NCBI GenBank assembly: GCA_016185545.1
Contig: JACPNJ010000005.1
Span: 79,013-143,012 of the forward strand
Reading direction: 5' to 3'
From: Candidatus Yanofskybacteria bacterium
GTDB taxonomy: Bacteria; Patescibacteriota; Minisyncoccia; 2-02-FULL-40-12; IGHO2-01-FULL-4-A
DNA length: 64,000 bases
The first letter of the stretch is position 1. The number at the start of each line of letters is the position of its first letter. Below, one piece after another: positions 40,834 through 60,699 of the stretch. A program made the translations under genes and the position numbers. The notes beneath the pieces were generated by a model. It searched no databases. It was not told where the DNA came from and saw nothing but the letters and a program-made list of their open reading frames with translations.

Positions 40834-41862
40834 TTAAAAAATTTTCCTGGCTAACCGGTAAACCAAATACCAAAATTTTGAAATCGGCAGGTCAAATGAG
40901 CCGGGGTATTCAATGGTATTGCCGCCCCAGCCGAGTTTGAAACGGGTAACGCCGGGCCATTTGCGCGGGTCAATACCCCAAAAATCATATCGTTTTAGAC
41001 CTTCCGCTTTTAATTGCTTCATTATGTGCCAGTGCAAGGCATAAGGAGCCATAAGTGCTCTGTTTTCGTAATCAGAAGCACCGTGTAAATAGTAACCAGC
41101 ATCGCCGTAAGTAAGAATTAAGGCCGTGGCGATCGGTTTGTCATGAGTTTTGTCGAAGGGTTTGTTGTTATGCTTGGCAAAATATAATTTGGTTTGAAGT
41201 CCGTTATAATCCAACAATTTTCTGTAATAGTCATCCGGGTGCGGATTAAATCTATCCCGTTTGGCGGTTTTTTTAAGCAATTTTAAGAAAGTTTCAACTT
41301 TTGCACGATATTCTGCACGACATGCGATGTCGTGCTTCTGCACGACATCGCATGTCGTGCAAGTTACCTCTTCGCCCACGATTATGCCACGTTTATCGGC
41401 AACACCGATATTGTAGCGGGTCTTGTGATGCATAGCCGCGAGTAATTCGTTTTCGCTTTTTGTTAAATCAACAACAACCGTCTTCGACGGTTGGATTTCT
41501 TTTTTTGATTTTTTAAAACCTGCCTCAACCAGCGCTTGGGCAATGCTATCAATAAGCGGTTCGGTTTTTATAAAAATTGACTTGCGTTTTTTGCTTTCTT
41601 CGCGCAACCACCTTACGAAATTCGCCACTGGATTCTTAAATCCGCCTATCATCTGATTGAAGTCAATCTCCGGCCCATGCGGTATATAAAGATAGCTTTT
41701 CCCAAACGGTAAATTGTGTTTAATTATTTTGGCGCTTATTACAGGAGGTTGAGCCTCTTTACTTAGAGGCTCAACCTCTAAGTTTTCCGGGTATTCCAAA
41801 ACCTCCCGCCCCAGCGATTTCTGAAATTTCGTCCATTCTCTTGACTGAAGAAATGAGGTCAT
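40834..41862 (-). CDS. FemAB-family peptidoglycan bridge-forming aminoacyltransferase
   Basis: LQSREWTKFQ N-terminus; YALHWHIMKQLKAEGLKRYDFWGI...FKLGWGG C-terminus; carries two different palindromic insertions. Confidence 0.7.
   Translation of the reverse strand: MTSFLQSREWTKFQKSLGREVLEYPENLEVEPLSKEAQPPVISAKIIKHNLPFGKSYLYIPHGPEIDFNQMIGGFKNPVANFVRWLREESKKRKSIFIKTEPLIDSIAQALVEAGFKKSKKEIQPSKTVVVDLTKSENELLAAMHHKTRYNIGVADKRGIIVGEEVTCTTCDVVQKHDIACRAEYRAKVETFLKLLKKTAKRDRFNPHPDDYYRKLLDYNGLQTKLYFAKHNNKPFDKTHDKPIATALILTYGDAGYYLHGASDYENRALMAPYALHWHIMKQLKAEGLKRYDFWGIDPRKWPGVTRFKLGWGGNTIEYPGSFDLPISKFWYLVYRLARKIF
41311..41360. repeat. palindromic element family C: 25-bp unit ttctgcacgacatgcgatgtcgtgc followed by its inverted-core copy, in frame in the FemAB-like gene
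   Basis: gcacgacatgcgatgtcgtgc is self-complementary except the centre; encodes TCTTCDVVQKHDIACRAE. Confidence 0.8.
41745..41783. repeat. family A palindromic element (GAGGTTGAGCCTC-N8-GAGGCTCAACCTC) in frame in the FemAB-like gene
   Basis: Encodes ..NLEVEPLSKEAQPP.. Confidence 0.8.
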
Positions 41863-42552: not shown

Positions 42553-42580
42553 CAAAATTCCCGCCTACGCCAAGGCTTCG
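42553..42580 (+). promoter_or_regulatory. 5' leader hairpin cccgcc-TACGCCAAGGCTTC-ggcggg 25 nt upstream of uvrB
   Basis: Same loop as 30369 and as the leader elements at 31596 and 60729. Confidence 0.4.
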
Positions 42581-42604
42581 GCGGGCAAGCAAACCATAAC
42601 ATAA

Positions 42605-44611
42605 ATGTTCAAGCTAAGTTCTAAATTTAGCCCTACTGGAGACCAGCCCAATGCCATAGCGAAATTAACTCGCGGGCTTGAGCGCGGAACAAAACATCAA
42701 ACGCTGGTTGGAGTAACCGGCTCTGGCAAAACATACACAATTGCTAATGTAATCGCCAATATCAAAAAACCGACACTGATTATTTCTCATAACAAAACAC
42801 TTGCCGCCCAGCTTTATCAGGAGTTCCGGGAATTTTTCCCGCACAATTCGGTACATTATTTCGTCAGTTACTACGACTATTACCAGCCCGAGGCTTATAT
42901 CCCACACACCGACACCTACATAGAAAAAGATGCGCGCATCAATGAGGAGATTGACCGCCTGCGCCACGCGGCAACACAAGCGGTTATGACGCGCGATGAC
43001 ATCATTGTAGTTGCTTCGGTTTCCTGTATCTATAATCTCGGCTCGCCGGACGATTATCAAAAATTGTCGTTCCGACTTTTTGAAGGACAAAAAATAAACC
43101 CTCGCGAGTTAGTTTTATCGCTTCTAAAACTTCAGTATGCCCAAGACATAGAGCTCAAACGCGGAACATTCCGTAAATCTGTTAACGAAATAGAAATAGT
43201 TTCAGCCACCGGCGACAAGATAACTAAAATAAAAGTCCACGGAAATAAGATTGAACGGGTAACCGTTGCTGAAGGCGTGGATTTAGATTCACTTATTTAC
43301 AACGACCCGACTTATGAAAGAATCGTGGAAACCCAAATTTATCCGGCAAAATATTGGATAGCAACCGATGATAAAGTTGATATAGCCATACAAAATATCA
43401 AAGCAGAGCTACAACAGCATCTCAAAAAATTGGAGCGCGAAGGATTGGCCCTGGAAGCGGCTAGATTAAAAGAGCGCACCGAACGCGACATCCAAATGAT
43501 AAAACAAACCGGCTATTGCCACGGCATTGAAAATTATTCGCGCCACCTTGATTTTCGCGCTCCCGGCGCGCCGCCTTTTACAATGCTGGATTTCTTTAAG
43601 ACGAAAGGTGAGTTTTTGACGGTTTTGGACGAATCCCATCTGACAATTCCACAATTAAACGGCATGCACTCCGGAGATTATTCACGCAAAATGACTTTGG
43701 TTGAATACGGCTTTCGCCTGCCATCGGCACTTGACAATCGTCCGCTTCGGTTTGATGAATTTAAGAAAAATATCGGCCAAACAATTTATATGTCAGCTAC
43801 ACCAAAAGAGTACGAGCTTAAAAAATCAGGTAAAAGCGGGGTGGCAGAACAGCTTGTCAGACCCACGGGACTGCTTGATCCGACAATTGAAATCAGGCCG
43901 ACTAAAAATCAGATAAAACACTTGCTCGGTGAAATAAAAAAACGCATAACCAACGGCCAGAGGGTTTTGGTTACAACTCTCACCAAAAGAATGGCTGAGG
44001 ATTTGTCAGAACATTTGGCCGACAACGGCATCAAAGTCAACTACATACATTCGGAAATAAAAACTCTCCAACGGCTTGAAATTATACACGACCTGCGGCT
44101 CGGCAATTATGATGCAATCGTGGGCGTTAATTTGCTGCGTGAAGGATTGGACCTGCCGGAAGTTTCACTTATAGCAATTTTGGATGCCGATAAAGAGGGA
44201 TTCCTTCGCAACACCACAACATTGATTCAGACCATGGGACGCGCAGCACGGCACGTTGATGGCCACGTTATTATGTATGCTGACAAAGTTACGCGCTCAA
44301 TGGCTAATGCCATCAAGGAGACCGAACGCCGGCGTAAAATACAGGAGGAATTTAATCTCAAGCATGGCATCACCCCCACAACAATCATAAAAGCAGTCAA
44401 GCGTTCCGATTTGCCGTCAGCAAAAAAGGCACGCATCAGCAAGTGGTACAGTTATGATCCGACCGACAAAGAAACAGAAATTGAGCATCTTACGCCTACA
44501 GCGCAAATGGAACGCCTGCAAAAAGAAATGGAACGGGCAGTCAAAGAACTCAAATTTGAAAAAGCAATGTATCTGCGAGAGCAGATGCTAAAATTACGCA
44601 AACAGCTTTAG
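42605..44611 (+). CDS. uvrB: excinuclease ABC subunit B
   Basis: 668 aa; full UvrB architecture including C-terminal UVR domain. Confidence 0.95.
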   Translation: MFKLSSKFSPTGDQPNAIAKLTRGLERGTKHQTLVGVTGSGKTYTIANVIANIKKPTLIISHNKTLAAQLYQEFREFFPHNSVHYFVSYYDYYQPEAYIPHTDTYIEKDARINEEIDRLRHAATQAVMTRDDIIVVASVSCIYNLGSPDDYQKLSFRLFEGQKINPRELVLSLLKLQYAQDIELKRGTFRKSVNEIEIVSATGDKITKIKVHGNKIERVTVAEGVDLDSLIYNDPTYERIVETQIYPAKYWIATDDKVDIAIQNIKAELQQHLKKLEREGLALEAARLKERTERDIQMIKQTGYCHGIENYSRHLDFRAPGAPPFTMLDFFKTKGEFLTVLDESHLTIPQLNGMHSGDYSRKMTLVEYGFRLPSALDNRPLRFDEFKKNIGQTIYMSATPKEYELKKSGKSGVAEQLVRPTGLLDPTIEIRPTKNQIKHLLGEIKKRITNGQRVLVTTLTKRMAEDLSEHLADNGIKVNYIHSEIKTLQRLEIIHDLRLGNYDAIVGVNLLREGLDLPEVSLIAILDADKEGFLRNTTTLIQTMGRAARHVDGHVIMYADKVTRSMANAIKETERRRKIQEEFNLKHGITPTTIIKAVKRSDLPSAKKARISKWYSYDPTDKETEIEHLTPTAQMERLQKEMERAVKELKFEKAMYLREQMLKLRKQL

Positions 44612-44753
44612 ATTCCTAAAAAATTACAAACTTTATTAGTAGAAAGATTGATCCACCGGCTACGCGCACGTGTTTTGCTGGCCCTTCGGGACAGGCGCAA
44701 AACGCGCGCGCCTCCGCCGGTAGAAACATCCTTTTCTTAGTAATTAACAAAGT

Positions 44754-44820
44754 GATAAAAATCACCCCCGACTCCGCCTGCAGGCGGAGTCGGGGGTTTC
44801 CGGTTTGTAATTTTTGATAA
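44754..44820 (+). repeat. small repetitive extragenic module: GATAAAAATCACCCCC - 14-bp GC hairpin - GGTTTGTAATTTTTGAT; the hairpin doubles as a terminator
   Basis: Hairpin cccccgactccgcc tgca ggcggagtcggggg at 44765..44796; same end motifs as 47928, 48240 and 55633. Confidence 0.6.
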
Positions 44821-45005
44821 ATCACCAAAAGTTATTTAAAACTTACATACCCAAAACGCACACTCTCTTGACACACGATAGGCATATATGCTAACCTATT
44901 CATGATGCTGGCTGATTATAAAAAGCCAAGCAGAACAACTACTGGAGAGCCACAAAAGCCCCGGCAGGTATGATCTTTTTCAATTGAATAAGGAGGAAGA
45001 AAAAA

Positions 45006-46366
45006 TGCAAGAATTTACATTTTTGTCAGTACTTGGGGTTTCCCTTGCTGTTATTGTGACAATGACTGTTGTCGTTTCCATTATGTTCCGACGAGTGGTT
45101 AGCACCAACACTGTACACATTGTGCAGAGTAGGCGCAAAACAACTCCATATGGTACAACATTGAGCTTCGGCAACGTCTATTACCGTTGGCCATCGTGGC
45201 TTCCTTATTTTGGTGTAACGGTCATTGAGTTGCCAGTAAGCAACTTTGACCTTTCATTGAAAGATTATGAGGCCTATGACAAGGATCGTGTACCTTTCAA
45301 GGTCGATGTTACATCATTTTTCCGCATCAAAGATACGGCTCTTGCCGCACAGCGCGTGGCCAGTATTAGAGAACTTGAAGAACAACTTTCACTTATTGTA
45401 CAGGGTGCCGTCCGTAAGGTTCTTGCCTCGGATGTTATTGATTCAATCATGCTTGAGCGTTCCAAATTCGGCGAGCAATTCACCAGTGAGGTGAGTGAGC
45501 AATTGAAGGAGTGGGGCGTCGAGTCGGTCAAGTCCATGGAACTCATGGATATTCGTGATAGTCACGAAAGTAAGGTCATCTCCAATATTATGGCTAAAAA
45601 GACCTCGCACATTGAAATGCAAAGTCGGGTGGAAGTTGCAAATAACCTGAAAACTGCCAAAGCAGCAGAGATTGAGGCCAAGCAGATAGTTGACGTTCGC
45701 CAACAAGAAGCCGATGAAGCAGTTGGCAAGCGTACAGCCGAAAAAGACAAACAGGTCGGCATCGCCCAGCAGCAATCTCGCCAGGAAGTTTTGACGCAGG
45801 AGAAGCAAACACAGGAACGCAGCATGGACGTGAAACGTGTTGAGCAAGTTCGACTGGCAGAAATTACTAAGGAAAAGGAAGTTGTGACTGCCGAGCAGAA
45901 CAAACAGACCACCATCATCAAAGCCGATGGTACTCTAGAAGCTCAGCGCAAAGAAGCCGCAGGAATTGAAGCCATTGGTCTCGCGAGGGCCGAAGCCGAA
46001 AAAGCTATGCAACTGGCACCCGTCACAGCGCAAATTACTCTTGCCAAGGAAATCGGTGAAAATGCCGGATATCAGCAGTATCTCGCTATGATTGAGTCTA
46101 TCAAGGCGTACTTAGAAGTTGGCGGTAAGCAGGCTGAAGCTCTACAGAGGGCCGACGTCAAAATTATTGCTAACACTGGCAATCCAACCACAGGCATGAA
46201 AAATGTTATGGACCTTTTCACGTCTAAGGGCGGGACGGAATTGTCTGCCATGATTGAAGCGTTTGCGCAAACACCGCTTGGCAAAGCAGTGCTTACCACC
46301 CTTGGCATCAAAACCGAATCCACAACAATCGGCACGCCAACTGGTAAAGAGACAACGGAAAACTAA
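45006..46366 (+). CDS. flotillin / SPFH (band 7) domain protein
   Basis: N-terminal TM; SPFH domain; long EA-rich coiled coil; GC visibly higher than flanks. Confidence 0.7.
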
Positions 46367-46486
46367 CTAGCTATCATGGGGAGACATTCTCCCTTTTTAA
46401 TTTGAAAAAGAGTTGTTGTAAAAAAATCACGATTTAAAGATGCATTTTATTGAGCAAATATATTTTTTATGTTAAAATATTAATTA

Positions 46487-46559
46487 CCGCCCCTAGCTCA
46501 ATTGGCAGAGCAGCTCCCTTTTAAGGAGAAGGTTCCGCGTTCGATTCGCGGGGGGCGGA
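46487..46559 (+). tRNA. tRNA-Lys (anticodon UUU)
   Basis: Hand-folded cloverleaf: acceptor ccgcccc/ggggcgg, D-arm gctc..gagc, anticodon loop cTTTTaa, T-arm ccgcg-ttcgatt-cgcgg; no encoded CCA. Confidence 0.85.
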
Positions 46560-46563
46560 CAAA

Positions 46564-46610
46564 TCTTATCAATTATAAAATCCGCCTCAAGCGGATTTTA
46601 TAATTGATAA
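46564..46610. terminator. perfect 20-bp hairpin ttatcaattataaaatccgc-ctcaa-gcggattttataattgataa between tRNA-Lys and the convergent HD gene
   Basis: Direct reading; overlaps the HD gene stop codon. Confidence 0.6.
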
Positions 46611-47882
46611 CCGACATATTCAGAGACTAGATCAAAGACTTCTTTCCATTTGGAATAGAGCGCTTCGCGATGTTCGGGAACCACACAAACCCTGACACAT
46701 AGATATTTATCCAATTCTCTTTCCAAGAGTTCAAAATAGCTCGGGTCTTGTTGTTTAAGGGAGTAAATACGCGGACCATCAAAAAGCGTAATATCCTCAG
46801 GAATAAAACGGTTTTTTTCCACTATGTGGCTTACCGCTACCTTCCAACCTTCAACGCCTAGCAATTTAGCAATAGAGGTTTCTATTCTTTCCAGATCTGC
46901 TGCGCTGGATTTTATAAAAAACCTGTCAAAAAAATCCTTGCCGACCTCAATTACCTTAATCTGTTTACCGGCATGCCGCTCCAGCCACATATAGCCGGTC
47001 AACCGTATGGAAAGCGCGGTTTTGGGAAAATGGCGCACACCGCTATCAAAAATCGCTATGCCGTTTTTTACTGTTTCGTCTTTACATTTTTTCAAAGCGT
47101 GAATCAGGTCGCCGTCGACCATTTCCCATAATTCATCTTCTGTAATTCCTCCTAATTTTTTTGGGGTATGCAATAACCGGTACATCAATTTTTGCATGAA
47201 GCGCTGGATGATATAGGCGCTTTTTTCCAGATGAACGTTACGGTAAAAATAAATATAGGCTCGCTGTATCTCAATGGCCGCATCCAGCGTTTTAAGATCA
47301 ACGAGGAGCTTGCCGTTTCGGTATTCCAGATGGTTAAAGACGCTCTCCACGCAACGGCGGATGTTCGGGCCGAATTCAGTCGCTTCCTGGTCGCGGACAA
47401 GGTAATCCATTTTTTCCATGCCGAAGTTCTTGTCACTGACTATCTGCCAGGCAGGGTTATTCCTTTTCATGTAACTTCTTATCAATTTAATGTCACCGCC
47501 GCATTTCTTAATATCACCGGCCATCCGATCTACAATTTTTAAACCGTATTCTTTGTGGTTTATTTTAGTAAAGGGCTCAATGATGTGGGAAAAAGGACCG
47601 TGTCCGATATCATGCAGAAGAGCGTAAAGGCCAAGATTGTGTGCTTCTTTTTTGGTTAAAAAACCGCGCTCAACCATCCGCACGGTAAATTCGCAAGTTT
47701 TGACATACGCACCCATCGAGTGCTGACGCCGGTCATGGGTCGCCCCCGGAAATACCAGATAGCTGAAAGCAAGCTGGCGTTTATCGCTTAAACGGCGAAA
47801 AAAATGATTGTCCACGATCGGAGAGATGCTCCCCTTATCCACCTGTCCAATCCCCGGCCAAGGAATCCATTTGTGACTACTC
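46598..47882 (-). CDS. HD-domain phosphohydrolase, dGTPase-like
   Basis: HSMGAY...LLHDIGHGPFSH HD motif; length of about 430 aa fits the dGTP triphosphohydrolase-like family. Confidence 0.7.
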
Positions 47883-47927
47883 ATCTTTTGATTAAATATC
47901 AAAAAACACAAAAAATCAAATTGCTAC

Positions 47928-47966
47928 ATCAAAAATTACAAACCCCGCTCCACCCCCTAATTTTTC
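47928..47966 (-). repeat. repetitive module copy (ATCAAAAATTACAAACC ... CCCCCTAATTTTT), left TIR of a ~357-bp MITE-like unit
   Basis: 17-bp perfect inverted match with 48268..48284. Confidence 0.6.
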
Positions 47967-47998
47967 TTCCTGTATCATGCCTTCATTACAAATTGCGG

Positions 47999-48203
47999 TC
48001 ACTGGCTAAATTGTCGGACACAGACCAGGACCGAATTTCTTAACGACTTGCCGTGCATAAATGCACAAGGCAAGTCTAAAATTCGGGATTGAAATGAAGC
48101 AGTTCATTTCAATCGTCCGTTTGCCGCTTGAAAACTTCGCCTATTGGCTCGTTTTCTGCGCGTTTTCCGACTAGTCCTAGTGTTACCCGACAATTCTTAA
48201 CGC
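47999..48203 (-). ncRNA. structured element copy L (about 205 bp; candidate ncRNA, RNA sense probably on the minus strand)
   Basis: Inverted homolog of 55912..56026 (about 90% over shared parts) with a 9-bp closing helix aattgtcgg/ccgacaatt, a compensatory hairpin difference (gcc-aata-ggc vs agct-tt-agct) and a ~95-bp nested insertion of two perfect hairpins. Confidence 0.5.
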
Positions 48204-48239
48204 CAGTTCCCTTATTTGTATAATCGGCAGATAATGTCA

Positions 48240-48284
48240 GAAAAATTAGGGGGTTGCGCTTGATACGGTTTGTAATTTTTGATA
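48240..48284 (+). repeat. repetitive module copy (GAAAAATTAGGGGG...GGTTTGTAATTTTTGATA), right TIR of the MITE-like unit
   Basis: Inverted partner of 47928..47944. Confidence 0.6.
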
Positions 48285-48294
48285 GGGTAAGCGG

Positions 48295-49890
48295 CTATTT
48301 TTCATCAGAGCCAAGGGATTCCTCCAATATCTTTCGCAATCCGCCGACGTCAATGTTAACTTTGGGTTTTGGCGGCTTGGACTCTATTTTGCGCCCCCTG
48401 AAATCAACCGGGCCTTGTTTGAGAGCTTCGGAAAAAGAAGTAGGTTTGACCGAAGGTTTTGGCGGAACAGCCAGTTTGAATGGCGCGGGTCTTGGTATGA
48501 TTGGCGCAGTGCTCGGCACGGGATTTCGCGGAAAAACCTGCGGTTTTCCCGCACCAAAACGAGGCTGACGCTCATCACTAAATCTTCCAATATCCGCCGT
48601 TACCGGTGCGTGCCATTCGGCAATTTTTTTCTCCACATCTTCACGACGGGCTGAGTAATGTTCTCTGGAGTATTCAATAATCCTTTGGCGATTGCTGACC
48701 GGCAAACGTTTTATCGTTTCCATCGTCATCGCCGAAAATGCCCGTGAAGCCACACCGTCAATCATCAATTTCAGATAAATTTGGCGTTTACCAAGATTTA
48801 CTATATCTGTAGCCATGAATTCCGGCGCCAGCTCTTTTTCTAAAAGTTCAGCATCTTCAGCGCCCACTCGAAAAGAAACAATAGTTCCGACATTGCCGAA
48901 AACTGCGTCTCTGACGCCCTCATCCATTTGAGCAACGTATTGATGGGCGATCATCAAACTCAAGTGATATTTCCGCGCCTCTGATAAGATATTGGCAAAA
49001 GAAGCCGTAGCAAAGTTTTGAAATTCATCAACAACCAATACAAAATCTTTGCGCTCGCGTTCTGGTATGTCAACGCGTGACATCGCGGCAAGCTGGATTT
49101 TTGTAATAATCAGCGCGCCAAGCAATCGTGAGGCGTCTTCGCCTATTCTGCCTTTTGAAATATTGACCAGCAAAATCTTACCTTCATCCATAATACGCCG
49201 CATATCAAGCGTACTTTTAGGCTGGCCGATTATATTTCTGATAAGCGTGGAGGATACAAACTGGCCAACTTTGTTTTGAATTGCCGCCGTTGCCTCTGAA
49301 GCAAACCTGTCGGCATATTTAGCGAATTCTTCGGTCCAAAATGCTTTAACCACCGGATCAGTCAACTGCCTAACGACGTTGGCACGATAATCTTTTTCGG
49401 CAAGCATTCGGTTAATTCCAAGAAGTGTAGAATCTGGGACTTCCAATAATGCTAAAATAGTATTATTAAGTATATACTCCATGCGCGGCGACCAAACATC
49501 AACCCATATTTTCTTGAAAACACCCATCACACCGTCAGCAACAAGATGGCGCTTATCCGGGTCAACCTGTTCCATAACATTGAAAGCAATCGGATATTCC
49601 AAATCAGCCGGATTGATATAGATTACATCTTTAATTCTGTCTTCTGGAATATAATCAAAAAGGTCTTCAACGGGATCGCCGTGCGGGTCAACAAAAGCAA
49701 GTCCCCTACTATCTTGTATGTCCTGAATGGCGATATTTTTAAGCAACTCGGATTTACCCATGCCAGTCTTGCCGATGACATACATATGACGCCGGCGGTC
49801 GTCCATCTTAACGCCAAAAGTCACCTTCTTGTTACGAAAGTTTGTTTCTCCGAATAGAACTACAGGGTTTTGATTCGCTTCGCTCATCAA
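48295..49890 (-). CDS. TraG/TraD/VirD4-like (FtsK-HerA superfamily) P-loop ATPase with disordered Pro-rich C-terminus
   Basis: Walker A GKTGMGKS, Walker B VLVVDEFQN; 531 aa. Confidence 0.55.
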   Translation of the reverse strand: MMSEANQNPVVLFGETNFRNKKVTFGVKMDDRRRHMYVIGKTGMGKSELLKNIAIQDIQDSRGLAFVDPHGDPVEDLFDYIPEDRIKDVIYINPADLEYPIAFNVMEQVDPDKRHLVADGVMGVFKKIWVDVWSPRMEYILNNTILALLEVPDSTLLGINRMLAEKDYRANVVRQLTDPVVKAFWTEEFAKYADRFASEATAAIQNKVGQFVSSTLIRNIIGQPKSTLDMRRIMDEGKILLVNISKGRIGEDASRLLGALIITKIQLAAMSRVDIPERERKDFVLVVDEFQNFATASFANILSEARKYHLSLMIAHQYVAQMDEGVRDAVFGNVGTIVSFRVGAEDAELLEKELAPEFMATDIVNLGKRQIYLKLMIDGVASRAFSAMTMETIKRLPVSNRQRIIEYSREHYSARREDVEKKIAEWHAPVTADIGRFSDERQPRFGAGKPQVFPRNPVPSTAPIIPRPAPFKLAVPPKPSVKPTSFSEALKQGPVDFRGRKIESKPPKPKVNIDVGGLRKILEESLGSDEK

Positions 49891-50020
49891 ATAAATTCAA
49901 AACTCAAATTACAAATTTTAATTGAAGCTCAAAATCTAAATTTTAAAACAGTTTTAGACTTTGAATTTTAGATTTCATTTAAAATTTGGATTTGAAAATT
50001 TGAATTTCTGCCGAATTTGT

Positions 50021-51298
50021 TTATCTGGTCGGTAAACCGGCTGGCGGTTGTCCTTTCTTTGCCTCCACGCGCGGAAACGCTGGCGCTTTTACACCGATAC
50101 CTGGCAAATGGAACAATGTTGCCAGTTCTTCAGTATTTAAAATTATAAACTGGCCAACAAAAGCTCTCTCTCGGTATTTTTGGTAAAGATGCCATTTGCG
50201 CCTGTACTCGCGCTCACGATAAAAAAACCCTTTATCCGATGGGAAAAGCCACGAAAACCATCCTTTATCTTTAGTAATCGTTTTTTTGTTAGGCTTGAAA
50301 CTGTTAAGATTATTGAGATAAAACTGCTTGAGCATACCCATTACCGCAGATATATGCGAGCCATGAAAACGATCTTTGCGGGCAATGTAAAAAAATCTAT
50401 AACCGGATTTGAAACCAAGTTTTGAAATTTTATTTTCAACTTGGTCAAGAGTAAATTTTTGACCAGGCGTAAGCTTTTGCAACGAAAATTCATCTTTTTT
50501 CTTTTCTTCATGCACCGGCGTTCCGCCGGGTAAAAGTAGATCAATAAAATCCACTACCTTGCCCAAAGAGCCACGCTCAACTTTGGGCTCTTTGCCAATA
50601 ATTTTATCTACTTCAGTCTTGGCTTCTTTTACCCAAGCATCACCCGTAGCTCTAATCGTAAGCTGCAGCCATATATGCTCACCCGATTCCAGCGCGCTCA
50701 TGATTTCGGCCAACGGCGCTAGAGGATCAGTCCGTTTGAATTCATCCTTGCCTGATTCTTCTTCAAAAAAGGGATAGGTTTTAATCGGATAGGCATCAGG
50801 TCTTGTAAAAACCAATTCTGTACCAAAAAGATCATATTCATCATTAGGAAGATACTCTGGCAACTGTGTGATATAGTCATCAGCTATTTTAATTTCAGCA
50901 TCCGGATATTGGGCAAAAATCTGCGCTTCAATCAAATTGCGCAGATCTTCTGGGGTTCTTATATAAAAATTGGTTTCGCCGCCATTGCCGACTATTTCAA
51001 ACGAAAGCCAGGGTTGAACCTTGCCTTTGAAAAATTCATCTTTCCAGCTTACGGAACCAGTGTAAAGCGCATGAAGGCCAGCAAAAATGTTTTCAGCTAT
51101 CTTCGGGCTTTTTTGGACATCGGGTGGAGGTTTAATTTCAAGTAAGACCCACTTTATGGAAAGAAGGTATTGTTTTCTTACATAAAAAAGCCAGCCGTCA
51201 AGCGCGCCGAAAAATAACAAAAACGGGGTGAATGTCCACCAGTAGTGTGCTAACAAGTAAAAAGATGTTTTTAGTGGACTAAGAACGTCGAGAAACAA
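50021..51298 (-). CDS. hypothetical membrane protein (2 N-terminal TM helices plus large cytoplasmic domain)
   Basis: 425 aa; 130 nt downstream of the ATPase gene on the same strand; TTG start. Confidence 0.45.
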   Translation of the reverse strand: MFLDVLSPLKTSFYLLAHYWWTFTPFLLFFGALDGWLFYVRKQYLLSIKWVLLEIKPPPDVQKSPKIAENIFAGLHALYTGSVSWKDEFFKGKVQPWLSFEIVGNGGETNFYIRTPEDLRNLIEAQIFAQYPDAEIKIADDYITQLPEYLPNDEYDLFGTELVFTRPDAYPIKTYPFFEEESGKDEFKRTDPLAPLAEIMSALESGEHIWLQLTIRATGDAWVKEAKTEVDKIIGKEPKVERGSLGKVVDFIDLLLPGGTPVHEEKKKDEFSLQKLTPGQKFTLDQVENKISKLGFKSGYRFFYIARKDRFHGSHISAVMGMLKQFYLNNLNSFKPNKKTITKDKGWFSWLFPSDKGFFYREREYRRKWHLYQKYRERAFVGQFIILNTEELATLFHLPGIGVKAPAFPRVEAKKGQPPAGLPTR

Positions 51299-51303
51299 AA
51301 ATC

Positions 51304-51402
51304 AGGTGTCAGGTGTCAGGTGTCAGGTGTCAGGTGTCAAAGTTTAGAAGTTATTTTATCTTATACTCTGTAACCTGTAACCTGTAACCTGTAACCTGTA
51401 AC
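51304..51402. repeat. (CAGGTGT)x5 and (CTGTAAC)x5 heptamer arrays filling the 100-bp intergenic region
   Basis: caggtgtcaggtgtcaggtgtcaggtgtcaggtgt ... ctgtaacctgtaacctgtaacctgtaacctgtaac; the first abuts the start at 51298, the second abuts the stop at 51402. Confidence 0.9.
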
Positions 51403-52517
51403 TAGGCCTCCTTGAGGGCATAAATCCCGTTGCCTTTTTTATCAAAAGTTTTAGAATCCTGCAGATTTAAAAGTATGGTGTTTTCTTTGACCATGCGGTG
51501 AGATAATACTTGCGACACTATTTCTTTTTTGTGCATCGGCTGACCGGCTGAATGCAGAAGATCAGTAATTACATCCTTGACGGTACCGGCTTTATAACCC
51601 CAATCGGCCAAACCATATAAACCACGACCAACCAGAACAAATCTTTTATCTTTAATCAATTCATTATGGACTGTCTGGACATTAGCTCTGCGGTTATCAA
51701 AACCGGATACATTGATGAGTCGGGTAATCTCGCGAAAATGCTTGGGCTTGCCATCGCGCTTCAATACTAAGAAGGCCTTGTCTCTGACACCTCTGGGTTT
51801 AATATCCGACCAATTGGCCAAACCAATTTGGCCGAAATTATTCTTGGCTATATTTTGTGAAATTGAAAGATAAGAAGCGACTATTGCCGGGGTTACGTCT
51901 TTAAGCGAGGCACCTGATTTTTTATAAAAATCCACGACGGCCGATTCTGCAATAGGGGCATTTTCCTTCTCTAAAACATTCATAAAAATAGAAAGTGATT
52001 TTTTAAAATATTCGGCGTGCTGGTCAGATAAAGCCCAGTATGCATGGAGGTCGTCAGTTTCTGCAAACTTCTTAAGTCGTTCATCAAGAAACAGAAAAAA
52101 AACTAAAGCGGCATTAGCCGGGTTCTCTTTAGCAACTCCGGAAAATTTAGCAAAGAGATTATCTTCCCTGCTAACTCCACCGGCCTGTTCAAGAATATTT
52201 TCGGCAAGACTGACAAACGGCTTAACCTTGGCGGCTATTCCGTCATTCAAGTTTCCCCTGATTTGTTTCAGTGAAACTTCCTCAATCTGTCTGACTCTTT
52301 CACGGGTTATGCCATAGCTTTTACCTATGGATTCAAGAGTTTCTTTCTTACCTGTTTTCAAGCCAAAACGACGTGAAATCACATCTTTATTCCTGGTACT
52401 TAAAACCGCAAGTACCTGTCCGACCACCCCCCTGATTGTAGCAGTTAAATTGGGCATACAAGCTTGTCCAAGAGCAAGGAGCGAAGCAACAAAGCGATTG
52501 GGTAACAAGGTTAGCAC
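51402..52517 (-). CDS. sigma-70 region-4 HTH domain protein with ~270-aa C-terminal domain of unknown function
   Basis: ISRRFGLKTGKKETLESIGKSYGITRERVRQIEEVSLKQIR is a canonical sigma-70 r4.2; no regions 2/3. Confidence 0.5.
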   Translation of the reverse strand: MLTLLPNRFVASLLALGQACMPNLTATIRGVVGQVLAVLSTRNKDVISRRFGLKTGKKETLESIGKSYGITRERVRQIEEVSLKQIRGNLNDGIAAKVKPFVSLAENILEQAGGVSREDNLFAKFSGVAKENPANAALVFFLFLDERLKKFAETDDLHAYWALSDQHAEYFKKSLSIFMNVLEKENAPIAESAVVDFYKKSGASLKDVTPAIVASYLSISQNIAKNNFGQIGLANWSDIKPRGVRDKAFLVLKRDGKPKHFREITRLINVSGFDNRRANVQTVHNELIKDKRFVLVGRGLYGLADWGYKAGTVKDVITDLLHSAGQPMHKKEIVSQVLSHRMVKENTILLNLQDSKTFDKKGNGIYALKEA

Positions 52518-52775
52518 CCCGCCCTCTATGCACTTTAATAGCTTAGAAGGTGGGGTAAATAACTACTACCATGCTCGCTACACTACGCTTGCTGCGCGTG
52601 GGCATTTATTTAAAGATACCATATAGTTTCTAACGGGTCAATCACTTAACATATCAACATATAACTATGGAGTATGACGTGTCAACCCCGTACGAGGCAG
52701 AGGCACGCTGCGTGCCCTCGCGGCCTCGTTCGGGGTCAACCCCGAAATGAACTTTCTGGAAAATCTACTATGGGG

Positions 52776-53663
52776 TCAGCCACTTCTTTTTCCACTTAAC
52801 CATACAAGGATCGGAGAAGCGACAAAGATTGACGAATAGGCTCCGGAAAAAATACCGATAATCAAAGCCAGAGCGAAATATTTGATTGATTCTCCGCCAA
52901 AAAAGAATATGGCAATAAGCGCGAGCAAGGTGGTAAACGTCGTATTCAGTGAACGTACCAATGTTTGCATTATGCTCTTGTGGACCAGCTCTCCAAAACC
53001 CTGACTGGAACCCAGTCGCAAAACATTTTCCCTGATCCTATCAAACACCACCACGGAATCAGATAGTGAATAACCGAGTATGGTCAGCGCCGCCGCCACA
53101 AAAATTGCGGTAATTTCAATACCAAAATAATAGCCCAGCAGCGCGAAAACACCGACGGGTATGACAATATCATGAATCAAGGCAATAATAGCGGCTAAAC
53201 CCATAGCCCATGGCGATAATGCGCGCGATATTTTCCTAAAAACAAATGCGACATACGCAATGATTGCGGCAAGCATTATTATTATCGCGGTGACGCTTTT
53301 GCTTCTTAACTCCTTGCCTATGGTGGGACCGATGGAATCAAAACGGCTTTCATTTATCTCGCCGAATTTATCGGAAATTTTGTCTAAAATATTTTGATGG
53401 GTTTGTTCGTCAATACTGTTCAAACGAATCAGTATTCCCCGCTCTCCGACCGGACTGATATTTATGTCTTTGGCGCCTGAAATCGCACCAATGACACCGC
53501 TAAGTTCGGCAGTTGGCGGACGGTTTTCCTTAAAAACAATTTCCATTACCGCTCCGCCCCTGAAATCAACGCCAAACCGCAAGCCGAAAACAGCTGTTAC
53601 AATAATCGCAGTGACGGTCAGCGCCATAGAAATGAAAAACATGATTTTATATACAGGTTTCAT
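52776..53663 (-). CDS. secF: protein translocase subunit SecF
   Basis: 295 aa, 6 TM helices, SecDF P1-head-like periplasmic part. Confidence 0.88.
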   Translation of the reverse strand: MKPVYKIMFFISMALTVTAIIVTAVFGLRFGVDFRGGAVMEIVFKENRPPTAELSGVIGAISGAKDINISPVGERGILIRLNSIDEQTHQNILDKISDKFGEINESRFDSIGPTIGKELRSKSVTAIIIMLAAIIAYVAFVFRKISRALSPWAMGLAAIIALIHDIVIPVGVFALLGYYFGIEITAIFVAAALTILGYSLSDSVVVFDRIRENVLRLGSSQGFGELVHKSIMQTLVRSLNTTFTTLLALIAIFFFGGESIKYFALALIIGIFSGAYSSIFVASPILVWLSGKRSG

Positions 53664-53705
53664 AAAATATCAATTGGATTTTGGATTTTGACATTGGAAT
53701 TTATT

Positions 53706-55055
53706 TCAGAATAGCCATCTCCTCTTTTCTAGCTTTTGCCCTATAAATAATCTCAAAAATGATTTAGTCACGACTATTGAGCTGAATAAACTCATTAATA
53801 CTCCAATGCCCAGTGTTAAAGCAAAACCTTTGACTACCGAGATTGAAAAAATATACAAAATAATGGCACCCAGTATAGTCGTCACGTGACTGTCGCGTAT
53901 TGAATACCAGGCCCGATGGAAACCTTCGTTAAATGACTGCGGCAATGATTTACCTGCCTTAAATTCCTCGCGAAAACGGGCAAAAATTAAAACATTGGCA
54001 TCAACGGCCATGCCCAGAGATAGTATGAATCCGGCAATACCAGCCAGGGTCAGCGTGACTGGTACCAGTTTATAAATAGCCAGAACGATAATGGTATAAA
54101 TCAAAAGCGCCAGAACTGAAACCACGCCGGGAAGACGATAAAAAAGTATCATGAAAATTGCTACCAGCAATAAGCCATAAAGACCGGCCCGGAGAGATCT
54201 TTGGAGTGATTCCTGCCCCAATGATGGACCGATTGTCTGCTGTGAAATGAGCGTTATTGGAACCGGCAAAGCGCCAGCATTAAGATTATTGGCAAGATCC
54301 CTCGCTTCTTTTATCGTAAATCCACCGCTGATAACGGCGCGACCGCCCTGTATTTCGCTTTGGACTGTTGGCGCGCTTATGACCAAACCGTCAATATATA
54401 TGGCGACTCGTTTACCGAGATTGCGTCTGGTGATTTCAGCGAATAACTTAGCACCATCATCGTTCAGTTCCAGTGATATTTGCGGCTGTGATGTGGTTTG
54501 ATCAAAGGCAAGCTGGGAACGTTTGAGATGCTTGCCGGTCAGACCGGTTGATTGAAAATACGGGTCTTCGCCAAGCTGTTGGCCTTTTTGCTGGGCATCA
54601 AGGATTTTTTGTGATTCTTCCTGTGTTCGTTCTTCCTTGAATTCTAGAAACGGCGTTTGGCCTATCATTTGGATTGCTTGGTTAACATCGCTGATACCGG
54701 CCAGCTCCACAACCAATCTGTCTCTGCCCTCTATCTGAACTAACGGTTCGGCTACACCAAAAAGATTGACTCTGCGCTCTATTACATCGCGCACACCGGC
54801 CATGGCATCACCAGCATCCTGTCCGCTACTGTCGGAAAGATCGGCTTGATAAACCAAATGGGTACCACCAAGAAGGTCTAAACCGAGACGAAATGACGGA
54901 ACTTTAAACATATGCGGAACTTTGAACTTTGAACTTTGAACTTTGAGTTTAGCGTTAACGATGTCCGCCCCCTTGTCCCATCCTTGCGGATACACAAAAA
55001 CCGCCAAAAACAGTGCGGCGGCCAAAATTATCAGCGGTGTAAATTTACGAAGCAT
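53706..55055 (-). CDS. secD: protein translocase subunit SecD
   Basis: 449 aa; SecD architecture (LLGGTHLVY... and C-terminal TMs). Confidence 0.88.
   Translation of the reverse strand: MLRKFTPLIILAAALFLAVFVYPQGWDKGADIVNAKLKVQSSKFKVPHMFKVPSFRLGLDLLGGTHLVYQADLSDSSGQDAGDAMAGVRDVIERRVNLFGVAEPLVQIEGRDRLVVELAGISDVNQAIQMIGQTPFLEFKEERTQEESQKILDAQQKGQQLGEDPYFQSTGLTGKHLKRSQLAFDQTTSQPQISLELNDDGAKLFAEITRRNLGKRVAIYIDGLVISAPTVQSEIQGGRAVISGGFTIKEARDLANNLNAGALPVPITLISQQTIGPSLGQESLQRSLRAGLYGLLLVAIFMILFYRLPGVVSVLALLIYTIIVLAIYKLVPVTLTLAGIAGFILSLGMAVDANVLIFARFREEFKAGKSLPQSFNEGFHRAWYSIRDSHVTTILGAIILYIFSISVVKGFALTLGIGVLMSLFSSIVVTKSFLRLFIGQKLEKRRWLF
54917..54950. repeat. (GAACTTT)x4 heptamer array in the SecD N-terminal region
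   Basis: Encodes KFKVPHMFKVPSF. Confidence 0.85.
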
Positions 55056-55154
55056 TGTTTGATAATAAAATATTTATACCTCAAAATCAAGACCGTGAGA
55101 CCTCGTCAAAAACAAAAGCCAAGTTTCCTTGGCTAATCAGCGGCTACAAACCCT

Positions 55155-55526
55155 TTAGTTTAATGCATCATTTGACTGGTCTTGAACTAAACTGGAAATC
55201 CTATTTGGATATTTGTGAATAGTGGCTCCAGGAAATTTTTTATTAATATATGCTACTGCCATTTCAGGGGTCTCGAAATACAATTCATGTTCTTGTGAGG
55301 CGTAATCTCCATCACCAGTGTTATATGAAATTATACCAGAACTAACCTTGGTCCAAAAACCAATCGGATACCAACCCATAAATCTTTGTATGTAAAATTC
55401 TTTTCTAATTGGCTCGCCCCACCCTTTCGTTTTTCCGTAGCTTTCCCATGCTTTTAACGTTGCCTCGTCATATTTATTTATCCGTTCTTTTCTTATACGA
55501 AATAACATTGGCTCCTCCTTATTCAA
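55155..55526 (-). CDS. hypothetical protein
   Basis: 123 aa, Trp/Tyr-rich; no recognisable domain. Confidence 0.4.
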   Translation of the reverse strand: MNKEEPMLFRIRKERINKYDEATLKAWESYGKTKGWGEPIRKEFYIQRFMGWYPIGFWTKVSSGIISYNTGDGDYASQEHELYFETPEMAVAYINKKFPGATIHKYPNRISSLVQDQSNDALN

Positions 55527-55632
55527 TTGAAAAAGATCATACCTGCTGGAAATAAGGCAATTTTAGGCCACTTCCAACATCGATATCATCTTAACATGTA
55601 TAGTGCTAGATTGTCAACATTTCGTTGGCTCA

Positions 55633-55687
55633 ATCAAAAATTACAAACCGGGAACCCACGATGTAATCATCGGGGGTGATTTTTATC
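55633..55687 (-). repeat. repetitive module copy (ATCAAAAATTACAAACC - hairpin cccacgatg/catcggggg - GGGGGTGATTTTTATC)
   Basis: Inverted homolog of 44754..44820; the hairpin sequence differs but the pairing is preserved. Confidence 0.6.
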
Positions 55688-55911
55688 GTTAGCAAATTGC
55701 TAAAACCAAAAACATTAGAGCGCACCCCGTCAAAAATTATTCAGAGCAAACCATATTGCCTTTTGGGACTTCTGGGATTGTCCCAATTTAGACTAGAGCG
55801 ACATCCTTTGATTTTAAAACATTTGTACCGAGTGACTGATTTATATAACGACTAGAGCGAGCCCCTTAGTTTTTCGTCATTCATCTGTCAACTAACAAAT
55901 TAGCAAAGCGA

Positions 55912-56026
55912 GCGTTAAAAATTGTCGGGTAACGCCAAGACTAGTCGGAAAACGCGCAGAAAACGAAGCTTTAGCTGAAGTTTTCAAGCGGCAAACGGAG
56001 AACTGGTCTGTGTCCGATAATTTAGC
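55912..56026 (+). ncRNA. structured element copy R (about 115 bp; candidate ncRNA)
   Basis: See copy L; closing helix aaattgtcggg/tccgataattt tolerates G-T on the + strand only. Confidence 0.5.
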
Positions 56027-56085
56027 GAGCTTTGCGTATATTTGTAGGCAGACATGATGTTGTAAGAAAAATTAAGGGGCCCGCG

Positions 56086-57540
56086 TCACTCTTCTGGTAA
56101 TTTTTCACGCGACACTCTCGGCTTCTGTTTTTCCAACCACTCCTTGAGGAATAGCGTTGCTTTTACATCGTCTTCGTTGTATTTGATGATTTTGTCCATG
56201 ATTTTTTGGTCTTTGGTTTTGAGCCAGTCATTGTACCAAACCACTGACTCGGCACCGCCGGCGTCTTCGGCCTGCCATTTGAAACCAAGGTACTTGGCTA
56301 CATCTTTCAAGCTGTAAAAATAAATCGGTAAAACCGCCGCCTCTATAAACGACCAATGCAAATCAATAGTATTATTCTTAAACTTATCTTCTAGCGCCAG
56401 TGAAATACCGTATTTATTACCCAAACGCTTGAAAACTTCGCGCTCATAGTATGAATAGTGGTAAATCACAAAATCCTCCAATGATTCCAAAAAATCAAGA
56501 AATTCACGCCAAGCCCTTTCCTCGTCTTTTTTATCCTGTGCCAAAAAGTATTTGTATGTTGGCTCTTTCTTGCCACTTTCTATAAGCATGCCCAAAAGAT
56601 AATCAATGCCTTCGGTGGGGTCCGATTCTATATCAAAGTAAATCTCATTTTCCACTTGCGGAAATTCGCTTTTTTTGAGAATTCTAGGTTCGTTTGAAAT
56701 CAAAACCTGGGCCTGATTATAAAAACGCAGGATTTTATCAAACGGCCAGTCTTCAAGACGGGAACGCAAAAAATCCAAATCAGCCGAAGCCAAGTCATTT
56801 ACAGTATGAATACCGAGCTCATAAAGTCGCCGCTGATCGTTCTGGCTCAATTTATAAATTAACGAAACGTCATCGCAACCCTTCGTTTCTTCAACGCATA
56901 AAGAATACCAAGGCGATTGCTTACAACCGCTTTTTAGAAACGGGGGGGGTTTTTCGCCGGCAAGCACCCGCTCTATCCTTTCTCGTGTCAGATGAAAATA
57001 ATCTAAAAAATCATCAACCATGAATGACCGCTCCTCGCCATCGGAATTGATGATGTGGGCATCGCGGGGCAAAACACCCTGCAATCTTTCTAAAATTAAA
57101 CTGTAAAAAACAAGCTGGAACTTGTACTCATCGCGTATTTCTTTGCCGCTTTTAATGTCATAGACAACATAATAATGATCGCCAAGATTTGATTTCATCC
57201 CCTTTTCTACGGGACGGGCTTCAAGCAAATCAGGTATCCCGACCCAATTTTCATCCATCAATACACCATGATAAATATTTTTGCCCTGTTTCATCAGTTC
57301 AAGAGTCGCCAAAAATGCCTCATCAAGATCGTGGAAAAATTCCGGTTTTATTTCTTCAAAATTCCGGCCCTTGATCATTTCCAGCTCATGCTTCAATCCG
57401 CCGCGGTGAATCATTTCAATCAGCGGCGGGATTTCACCCTTCTTCGCCTGCTCGCCGTAAATGTCATACCAAATCCAGTGGGGACATTGGAAAAATTTAT
57501 AAAAATGCTCCCCGGTCAATTTTGGCTTTTTATCAGTCAT
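56086..57540 (-). CDS. TM0106-family RecB-like nuclease (Cas4-like PD-(D/E)XK plus RNase H-like domain)
   Basis: FFQCPHWIW, IPDLL...VYDIKSG, C-x-C-x-C cluster (SGCKQSPWYSLCVEETKGC), then YFDIESDP exonuclease-like motif. Confidence 0.6.
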   Translation of the reverse strand: MTDKKPKLTGEHFYKFFQCPHWIWYDIYGEQAKKGEIPPLIEMIHRGGLKHELEMIKGRNFEEIKPEFFHDLDEAFLATLELMKQGKNIYHGVLMDENWVGIPDLLEARPVEKGMKSNLGDHYYVVYDIKSGKEIRDEYKFQLVFYSLILERLQGVLPRDAHIINSDGEERSFMVDDFLDYFHLTRERIERVLAGEKPPPFLKSGCKQSPWYSLCVEETKGCDDVSLIYKLSQNDQRRLYELGIHTVNDLASADLDFLRSRLEDWPFDKILRFYNQAQVLISNEPRILKKSEFPQVENEIYFDIESDPTEGIDYLLGMLIESGKKEPTYKYFLAQDKKDEERAWREFLDFLESLEDFVIYHYSYYEREVFKRLGNKYGISLALEDKFKNNTIDLHWSFIEAAVLPIYFYSLKDVAKYLGFKWQAEDAGGAESVVWYNDWLKTKDQKIMDKIIKYNEDDVKATLFLKEWLEKQKPRVSREKLPEE

Positions 57541-60251: not shown

Positions 60252-60699
60252 TATTTATTTTTTTAGAACGGTCGGAAACTAACCAGGAGCTTGATTGTAT
60301 CTTGCCACCACGGCCAATGTTGAAAATTATTTTGCAGCCAAGTTTGTTACAAACAGCAGCTTCTGGAATATCATTTGCGGTTCTATCTCCCCCATTGGCA
60401 AAAATGTGGGGTCGGATTTTTTTAAGTTCGGCGCATACGCTCATATCCGCCGGCTCCGCCGGATGACTGGTCAAAATTACCTGATCAACTCCCCTTATTG
60501 TTTCCAGTATTTCCTTGCGTTCTTTTTCAGACATAAACACATAACCCTTTTTCTTTCTGAGCCAGTTATCGTTATTCAAAATAACAACCAATTTGTCGCC
60601 AAGTTTCCGGGCTTCCTGAAAAAGCCGGACATGGCCGACATGAATTGGGTCCCACCCGCCACTTACCGCTACTATTATTTTTTTCTTTTTATTTCCCAT
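60232..60699 (-). CDS. cytidylyl/adenylyltransferase-family (HIGH motif) nucleotidyltransferase
   Basis: VAVSGGWDPIHVGHVRL; 155 aa; 20-nt overlap with the DAC gene. Confidence 0.75.
   Translation of the reverse strand: MGNKKKKIIVAVSGGWDPIHVGHVRLFQEARKLGDKLVVILNNDNWLRKKKGYVFMSEKERKEILETIRGVDQVILTSHPAEPADMSVCAELKKIRPHIFANGGDRTANDIPEAAVCNKLGCKIIFNIGRGGKIQSSSWLVSDRSKKINNGKKDF

Follow-up and report, generated by a model that had tools for sequence, protein, structure and literature searches.

Modular hairpin-forming repeat elements with shared terminal arms in Candidatus Yanofskybacteria and other Patescibacteria

We examined a 64,000-nucleotide stretch of a Candidatus Yanofskybacteria genome (GenBank assembly GCA_016185545.1, contig JACPNJ010000005.1, positions 79,013 to 143,012; called the window here) in which a 17-mer, ATCAAAAATTACAAACC, closes several short intergenic units. 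The reading that we favor, at a probability of about one-half, is that this 17-mer is the outermost inverted-repeat stem of modular, noncoding, hairpin-forming repeat elements, a structured family resembling miniature inverted-repeat transposable elements (MITEs) and REPINs. The window holds two copies of one such element (elements L and R), and the same arms with the same spacer flank three different cargoes, named X, L, and Y. The analysis followed up an original prediction, made from the letters of the window, of a small module recurring at four sites, two copies of which would form the ends of a MITE-like unit around L. Loci from other genomes are cited by number (L006 and so on).

Results

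The 17-mer and the units that it bounds

The 17-mer has four exact matches, at 44802-44818 (minus strand), 47928-47944 (plus), 48267-48283 (minus), and 55633-55649 (plus), and nine matches in the window when up to three mismatches are allowed (0.88 expected; nine were reached in 0 of 100 shuffles). Two second-end motifs recur with it: GGGGGTGATTTTTATC is exact at 44754-44769 (minus) and 55672-55687 (plus), and GAAAAATTAGGGGG is exact at 47953-47966 (minus) and 48240-48253 (plus), with near-copies at 56066-56079 (plus, one mismatch) and 55862-55875 (minus, two mismatches). Units of the general form A5-TTA...TAA-T5 number 18 in the window versus 0.37 in shuffles, an enrichment of about 50-fold. 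These exact matches, four of the 17-mer and two of each second-end motif, bear out the predicted recurrence at four sites; the strand labels given to the copies are inverted relative to the motif as written. The predicted 357-bp unit at 47928 to 48284 does have perfect 17-bp inverted ends, and a degenerate right end does follow element R, at 56067-56105.

Three other parts of the prediction had to be given up. A hairpin of variable sequence was said to pair in every copy, but a GC hairpin is found only in the copies at 44754 and 55633 (modules A and D); the centers of the copies at 47928 (CCGCTCCA, module B) and 48240 (TTGCGCTTGATAC, module C) are unpaired. The four modules are not one family, since the copies at 44754 and 55633 belong to the terminator tail of the different element X. 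Finally, L is not the cargo of the 17-bp unit: it is itself a conserved multicopy element, most copies of which lack the 17-mer arms.

The L family is repeated and dispersed

The features of the window that belong to the L family are the following.

47928 to 47969, plus strand: module B, made up of the outer arm (47928-47944), the spacer CCGCTCCA, and the inner arm CCCCCTAATTTTTC (47953-47966), with no central hairpin
47953 to 48253, minus strand: element L proper, bounded by the inner repeats; a full L-family member by alignment, fold, and covariation
48029 to 48115, minus strand: optional pair of hairpins, 87 nucleotides (nt) long, inserted at the L core junction and absent from R in a comparison of the two
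48240 to 48284, minus strand: module C, made up of the inner arm GAAAAATTAGGGGG (48240-48253), the spacer TTGCGCTTGATAC, and the outer arm (48267-48283), with no central hairpin
55688 to 55861, plus strand: leader between module D and R, with a degenerate arm GTCAAAAATTATTCAGAGCAAACC (55729-55752), two GACTAGAGCGA repeats, and the motif TTTGTACCGAGTG
55862 to 56079, plus strand: element R, the second L-family copy in the window, without the 87-nt insert; about 82% identical to L over the core and folding best on the plus strand
56096 to 56108, unstranded: degenerate outer arm E, GGTAATTTTTCAC, overlapping the gene at 56086-57540 (minus)

L-family elements are about 220 to 335 nt long, and we collected about 20 distinct copies from Patescibacteria genomes and metagenomes. 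A 20-mer from the core retrieved seven true copies from genome assemblies, three of them in JACOZZ01 (Yanofskybacteria) and two in CAYHQI01, together with one chance match in a coding region; a different core 20-mer retrieved 13 true copies from metagenome contigs. All of these true copies lie in Patescibacteria genomes or in unlabeled metagenome contigs. A profile search of the sequences gathered added one diverged copy, on L008, and found no third copy in the window. Individual genomes thus carry several copies: at least four in JACOZZ01 (L009, L013, L014, and L037, the fourth lying downstream of that genome's TraG-like gene), at least three in CAYHQI01, and two in the window.

The genes next to the copies differ (rpoC, CysRS, SerRS, and TraG-like genes), and copies at unlinked loci can be nearly identical. 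L009 and L013, from one genome, are 96.8% identical, and L023 and L034 are 100% identical over 257 nt with different flanks. The window's L and L014 of JACOZZ01 share 98.6% identity, against only 86% (DNA level) for the TraG-like genes of the same two organisms. At least nine copies lie at contig ends, and in the window's own organism, short-read contigs end within L and within a 37-nt repeat.

From one end to the other, a full element consists of the outer arm ATCAAAAATTACAAACC, a spacer (yCGCTCA), an inner arm (CCyCCTAATTTTTC), covarying stems, and a three-way-junction core with one variable hairpin and the optional two-hairpin insert, after which the inner arm, spacer, and outer arm follow as a mirror image. 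Almost no variation is seen in the core (GCTAAATTGTCGGACACAGACCAG ... TCCGTTTGCCGCTTGAAAAC, the variable hairpin, then GTTTTCTGCGCGTTTTCCGACTAGTCTTAGTGTTACCCGACAATTCTTAACGC), an invariance overstated by the collection of copies with exact core words, and the peripheral stems fall into at least three subtypes. Just inside the 17-bp ends of the window's unit lies a second perfect inverted repeat, of 14 bp (CCCCCTAATTTTTC / GAAAAATTAGGGGG); this inner repeat, in the form TAATTTTTC/GAAAAATTA, is present in nearly all copies, about two-thirds of which end there, without 17-mer arms. Outer arms of the 17-mer type with the conserved spacer were found in 7 of the approximately 20 copies, and the arm-spacer-inner-arm-L layout of the 17-bp unit recurs in L014, L021, L022, L033, L036, and L037. 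On the module B side this layout is seen in L014, L022, L033, and L037; on the module C side the spacer, TTyCGCTTGAT-, is conserved in L021, L033, and L036, and L022 has TTTCGCTTAC. Neither module B nor module C has the makeup of an intrinsic terminator. The 87-nt insert is also present in L012 and L028, with compensatory changes (e.g., TTGAAATGAA/TTCATTTCAA versus TCAAACTGAA/TTCAGTTTGA). Some copies are mosaics; the left and right halves of L033, for example, come from different subtypes.

No reading frame is conserved across the copies of L or of X, and no frame of the L family survives the variable hairpin and the 87-nt insert. The L family has three of the features by which MITEs are recognized: a noncoding length below about 600 bp, shared terminal inverted repeats, and dispersal with presence/absence polymorphism.

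Element R with its degenerate arms (55862-56079) is best explained as a second, older copy of the full element. A leader like that at 55688-55861 also stands 5' of the L009 copy and in L004. In L004 (12040-12200) a long AT/GC hairpin follows the leader, CATTGTACCGAGTGAATG...GAAGCGAG, whose motif is also found ahead of R in the window (55830-55861) and ahead of the L009 copy.

The structure covaries and favors one strand

In an alignment of 14 copies, 97.6% of the cells pair and 21 of 59 pairs have changed on both sides; 0 of 500 shuffles reached any of these measures, and slid controls paired at 35 to 43%. The diverged second copy of L008 has three double compensatory changes in an otherwise invariant core helix. 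The structure is also strand asymmetric. Of the two strands, the reverse of L as written, here called fam-, is the better-folding one in all 13 copies tested, by 10 to 27 kcal/mol. G-U pairs number 65 on fam- versus 45 on the other strand, 1x1 A-C mismatches 5 versus 25, and paired alignment cells 802 of 822 versus 754 of 822. Since fam- is favored, the favored strand in the window is minus for L and plus for R; the fold z-scores of element L are -13.5 on the plus strand and -15.0 on the minus strand. The L family thus also has a conserved covarying structure and a defined strand, two of the features by which structured noncoding RNA (ncRNA) is recognized.

The sites of the copies are polymorphic and often lie at gene ends

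The 357-bp unit stands between a TraG-like gene and an HD gene, and a comparison of synteny showed that this site differs among relatives. In L016, L017, and L018 the site is just 80 bp of spacer containing a plain terminator; X is present in L006 and L004, L in the window, and the third element, Y, in L019 and L038. In JACOZZ01 (L037) the site holds an L of another subtype in the opposite orientation, asymmetric spacers included. The original prediction would have failed had relatives shared the identical arrangement, and the polymorphism of the TraG-HD site shows that they do not. Terminators at empty sites are styled AAAAATTGC-hairpin-GCAGTTTTT, like modules A and D.

The copies remodel gene ends. 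Seven of nine genome copies abut a stop codon, and in L008 and L013 it is the inner arm that contains the neighboring gene's stop codon. The window's Cas4/RNase-H-like gene at 56086-57540 (minus) takes its final six codons (EKLPEE), which stand just before the stop codon at 56086-56088, from arm E; the L006 orthologue ends differently and is followed by a plain terminator. On the other side, the copies often adjoin the terminator of a convergent gene. A further site in the window is occupied differently in L008:

566 to 636, unstranded: small unit AAAAATTAG...CTAATTTTT of 71 bp, directly after the SerRS stop codon; L008 has a full L copy at the same site

Where the window has module D and R, between the Cas4-like gene and SecD, L006 has an unrelated palindrome, TCCCGTTAGAAGTCGC...GCGACTTCTAACGGGA (4630-4760).

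Element X uses the same arms

The features of the window that belong to X are the following.

44616 to 44632, plus strand: degenerate left arm of the X unit, CTAAAAAATTACAAACT, complementary to 44802-44818 and paired in the predicted fold and in a three-genome alignment
44656 to 44731, unstranded: X core, a long conserved hairpin (CCGGCTACGCGCACGTGTTTTGC...GCCGG) followed by the conserved tail GTAGAAACATCC; kept in L006, L007, and L004
44754 to 44818, unstranded: module A, with the A-tract GATAAAAATCA, a 15-bp GC hairpin (44764-44797), and a T-rich tail containing the exact 17-mer (44802-44818); closes X
55633 to 55687, unstranded: module D, with the exact 17-mer, the GC hairpin CCCACGATG/CATCGGGGG, and then TGATTTTTATC; recognized by sequence match to the 3' end of the X unit

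The degenerate fifth arm at 44616-44632 makes 44616-44818 (203 bp) an inverted-repeat-bounded unit as well. Three independent sequences provide the evidence on X. In L006, L007, and L004 the homologue follows the TraG-like gene on its downstream side, before the HD gene is reached, with the layout arm, X, motif AGTGATAAA, a hairpin of different sequence, and arm. Aligning the X units (arms, core, and 3' hairpins) showed both sides changed in 11 of 54 predicted pairs, and the minus strand of X folds slightly better in three of three homologues.

Modules A and D are best explained as the A-tract/GC-hairpin/T-tract terminator tail of X, a different cargo that uses the same arms as L. Module A, whose layout recurs with a different hairpin sequence in L006 and L004, is the best-scoring terminator-like site in 44400-56300; it has the makeup of an intrinsic terminator on the minus strand (15 pairs plus GATTTTTATC), and by its sequence it could work in both directions. 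Module D together with 55688-55705 matches the 3' end of the X unit and lacks the X core, as a remnant would; by eye it has an 8-pair stem with one mismatch followed by TGATTTTTATC, and the terminator scan did not list it. In L004, a GC-rich structured stretch ending in a terminator lies downstream of X (11860-11975).

Each of these two modules adjoins a copy of a 37-nt leader:

44961 to 44997, plus strand: 5' untranslated region (5'UTR) and ribosome-binding segment of the SPFH/Band7 gene, 37 nt, 97% identical to 55513-55549 (minus)
55513 to 55549, minus strand: second such 37-nt segment, before a 117- to 123-amino-acid open reading frame (ORF) upstream of secD, with 97% identity to 44961-44997

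A promoter-like site, TTGACA-18-TAAGAT, stands at 55617-55588, by the second copy. Because D and A adjoin the same promoter-proximal block, including the 97% identical leader, the terminator-arm-promoter-leader block must have been duplicated as a unit. The leader copies, with similar TTGACA-N18-TAAnnT promoters, precede unrelated genes (SPFH/Band7 and the ORF upstream of secDF), and the promoter with its leader looks, from the sequence, like a portable regulatory block.

Element Y and other small repeats

The third cargo, Y, is bordered by the same kind of module:

9559 to 9595, plus strand: arm-spacer module ATCAAAAATTACA-GCTCGCCA-TTACCAATTTTTATC, bordering the third structured element, Y

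A 146-nt inverted repeat, 99% identical (7450-7595 and 9580-9725), flanks mreC and mreB, and each of its copies lies inside a longer hairpin element Y (7382-7607 and 9559-9770) that ends in TTACCAATTTTTATC / GATAAAAATTGG. We considered and rejected the 146-bp repeat as the ends of an insertion sequence, as it encloses mreB and mreC. The near-identical inverted copies around these two essential genes could let the segment invert. L019 and L038 have Y-like elements 3' of the TraG-like gene.

For its size, the genome of the window contains an unusual number of small intergenic repeats. A small family, TTACTTAGAGGCTCAACCTCGTAGAGGCTCAACCTC, with tandem 16-nt units and a palindromic end, occurs at 11469-11523, 15407-15461, 34082-34101, and 41759-41778. 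There are also a 55-nt pair (98%; 59410-59464 and 62622-62676), a 130-nt pair (88%; 31551-31680 and 60678-60807), and a 37-nt inverted pair (92%; 30387-30423 and 42554-42590), and at least the 55-nt and 37-nt pairs include GC-rich hairpins flanked by AATTTT.

Genomic setting

The TraG/TrwB-like ATPase encoded at 48295-49890 (minus) has homologues by the thousand across the candidate phyla radiation (CPR), those from Candidatus Yanofskybacteria being the closest of the named ones. The trio at 48295-52517 (this ATPase, a DUF8128 protein, and a protein with sigma-70 region 4 and HARE-HTH) is syntenic in all relatives fetched and is therefore a chromosomal module conserved in these CPR bacteria rather than a conjugative element. 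The Pfam scan took in all long ORFs of the window except 60232-60699, 60974-61450, and 61493-63967; about 12 of the long ORFs had no match, and those matched are housekeeping genes (SerRS, LysRS, GreA, PBP2, MreBC, Lon, UvrB, RuvA, SecDF, and others).

L006 (GCA_016181175.1) shares the window's gene order and orientation: Cas4-like, SecD, SecF, sigma/HARE-HTH, DUF8128, TraG-like, HD, tRNA, SPFH, UvrB, and RuvA. The outermost copies, at 44754 and 55633, had been predicted to bracket a composite element, but L006 keeps this order and orientation without those modules; the same conserved synteny contradicts a composite transposon bounded by 44802 and 55633 (a 10.8-kb block).

Searches against known families

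We searched the window, L, R, and X, and the loci of eight relatives against 4,227 Rfam families, at gathering scores and at E values of up to 10, and obtained only tRNAs; for L, R, and X no match rose above the gathering score, and none was credible at the looser cutoff. The L unit had no match in phage and plasmid collections, and the L core had none in IMG/VR viral contigs. A single IMG/VR match to the X pattern had no X sequence around the motif and was taken as a chance match; the 17-mer had 31 single matches there, without a partner arm, many of them to one recurring, apparently protein-coding phage sequence. A tRNA with a group I intron (an idea taken from PMC13011429) was rejected, as neither tRNA halves nor a match to the intron model was found. 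An integron attC site was rejected as well: the neighbors are conserved housekeeping genes in fixed synteny, and the ends lack an RYYYAAC/GTTRRRY core. Our literature searches found no paper describing such repeat elements in Patescibacteria.

Discussion

The MITE idea holds in part. In its favor are the repetition and dispersal of the elements, the near identity of some copies whose loci are unlinked, the polymorphism of the sites, the remodeling of gene ends, and the sharing of arms by X, L, and Y. As to the architecture originally predicted, the noncoding makeup, the recurrence of the layout elsewhere, and the polymorphic site stood, and the expected target-site duplication and autonomous partner were not found. 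We infer that L-family elements are, or recently were, nonautonomous mobile DNA. They would be moved or copied in trans by a function encoded outside the window, and would settle, in either orientation, where short spacers follow the 3' ends of genes, with no target duplication and sometimes supplying the stop codon or the last codons of the neighboring gene. The folded single-stranded fam- would be the form under selection, as DNA during mobilization or as RNA, and after settling, the long hairpins would probably act as terminators or insulators.

Several results weigh against this reading. No direct repeat was found outside either the outer or the inner arms of the window's L (47928 to 48284), L022, or L033, and no copy with both flanks showed a target-site duplication; a CGCT-like direct motif by the inner arms is nearly constant across copies and thus behaves like part of the element rather than a duplicated target. 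No autonomous element with the same ends was found in the window or in the fetched loci, and no transposase, integrase, or reverse transcriptase was found among the window ORFs scanned with Pfam. At the TraG-HD site the arms may be resident rather than imported, since the conserved HD-gene leader runs straight on from the right arm in L006, the window, and L038. An invariant core (its invariance overstated by the exact core words with which copies were collected) with termini that vary and covary is the reverse of a typical MITE and more like a functional RNA, and the strand-specific G-U pattern is unexpected for a cut-and-paste transposon that moves as double-stranded DNA. GC skew on fam- is negative at seven distinct loci and positive at seven, and this lack of orientation bias argues against a mechanism of the IS200/IS605 type on the lagging strand. 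The lack of target duplication, the conserved core, the variable complementary termini, and the favored strand do not suit a classical MITE; they are what one would expect of an element acting as a single strand in its folded form. By analogy, that strand could be single-stranded DNA (ssDNA), as in REPINs, or equally RNA, either of a gene family or of RNA-based spreading.

The main rival, which we consider possible though rather unlikely, is that L and R (and, separately, X and Y) are functional ncRNA gene families whose copies arose by ordinary duplication and recombination rather than transposition. The three-way-junction core would be the active part, as a protein-binding scaffold, a ribozyme, or a guide-like RNA, and the arms would be closing or processing stems. 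Such an RNA would account for a nearly invariant core around which the peripheral stems, a hairpin of fixed position and variable length, and the optional insert covary; for G-U pairs that are specific to one strand whatever the direction of the flanking gene; for an L element better conserved than the neighboring protein gene; and for X arms that changed together in L004 (AAAAATTACA/TGTAATTTTT to AAAAATTGCA/TGCAATTTTT). It sits poorly with the setting of the copies. No conserved promoter-like site was found upstream on fam- among the L-family copies, and in several (L008a, L008b, and L013) a terminator lies directly upstream; orientation relative to neighboring genes is random, with no bias toward the local gene direction. 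Copies overlap stop codons and replace C termini, mosaic copies with mismatched halves exist (e.g., L033), contigs break inside the element, and no Rfam family matches.

We also put forward, as a tentative and doubtful suggestion, that the L family is a new Patescibacteria-specific class of large structured nucleic acid with an invariant three-way-junction core functional on one strand, X and Y being sister cargoes of the same system. Examples would be a ribozyme, or the RNA or ssDNA part of a duplication-free mode of spreading with interchangeable closing stems.

It is improbable that there is no special element and that the motifs are A- and T-tracts of ordinary two-way intrinsic terminators spread by local segmental duplication. 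Modules A and D do have the anatomy of terminators, relatives have similarly styled terminators at their empty sites, and A and D share the adjoining promoter and 37-nt leader, the block being duplicated whole. This account leaves unexplained L and R (220 to 335 nt, about 20 copies, many genomes, and covariation), the missing hairpin in modules B and C, and the presence in other genomes of identical arms on unrelated cargoes whose loci are not linked; as an account of L, R, B, and C it already stands refuted.

Least probable of all is an inverton in which the 17-bp inverted repeats are inversion sites and 47945-48266 flips, altering what is transcribed between the TraG-like and HD genes: the repeats flanking the segment are perfect, L at the orthologous JACOZZ01 site (L037) has the opposite orientation relative to the TraG-like gene with its asymmetric spacers turned as well, and the right arm adjoins the conserved HD-gene leader, but the JACOZZ01 copy is of a different L subtype (in its peripheral stems and apical hairpin) and so is not simply the window's DNA flipped, this single comparison between genomes is the only place where the opposite orientation was seen, one short-read contig of the same organism has the window's orientation, most family members lack arms, and Pfam scans of the long ORFs in the window found no invertase or recombinase gene.

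Returning to modular repeat elements as the preferred reading, we note that Patescibacteria have tiny, streamlined genomes in which repeat elements have been little described. Upkeep of several copies, conservation above that of housekeeping genes, and a strand signature come at a cost to a tiny genome, which points either to an effective parasite with an unusual way of moving or to a useful RNA. The L family also breaks short-read assemblies and reshapes gene 3' ends and thus matters for the quality of metagenome-assembled genomes and for annotation in Patescibacteria.

Bacterial MITEs and structured intergenic repeats include Correia/CREE of Neisseria, ERIC/IRU of enterobacteria, and BOX and RUP of Streptococcus pneumoniae. 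BOX is built of A-B(n)-C modules, Correia duplicates TA on insertion, and such repeats can act as terminators or RNA-processing sites. The L family is like them in being small, noncoding, multicopy, and near gene ends, with terminal inverted repeats, long hairpins, and a modular mosaic build. In contrast to them, it has no target-site duplication and no known cognate insertion sequence, its core is its most conserved part, its termini are variable yet complementary, its G-U signature is strand specific, and it is confined to Patescibacteria.

REPINs are pairs of REP sequences that form hairpins and are mobilized by RAYT Y1-transposases; they are about 70 to 110 nt long and contain two short REP palindromes. 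Long hairpins, the lack of target duplication, nonautonomy, long persistence, a location at gene ends, and a presumed single-stranded hairpin on one strand are common to them and the L family, whereas L is 220 to 335 nt long with a three-way-junction core, and no RAYT gene was seen in the window. The IS200/IS605-derived palindrome-associated elements (PATEs) have two subterminal hairpins, no overall inverted repeat, insertion by a fixed tetranucleotide, and a strong replication bias. L elements likewise lack terminal duplication and would depend on the structure of one DNA strand, but a whole L element is one hairpin, and its orientation relative to GC skew is about 50:50.

Finally, the large Rfam RNAs of unknown function (e.g., raiA, ROOL, GOLLD, and HEARO) resemble the L family in size class, in an invariant junction core with covarying variable stems, and in sometimes occurring in several copies or in association with mobile DNA. 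The L family differs in matching none of the 4,227 Rfam families, in sequence or in structure, at E values of up to 10.

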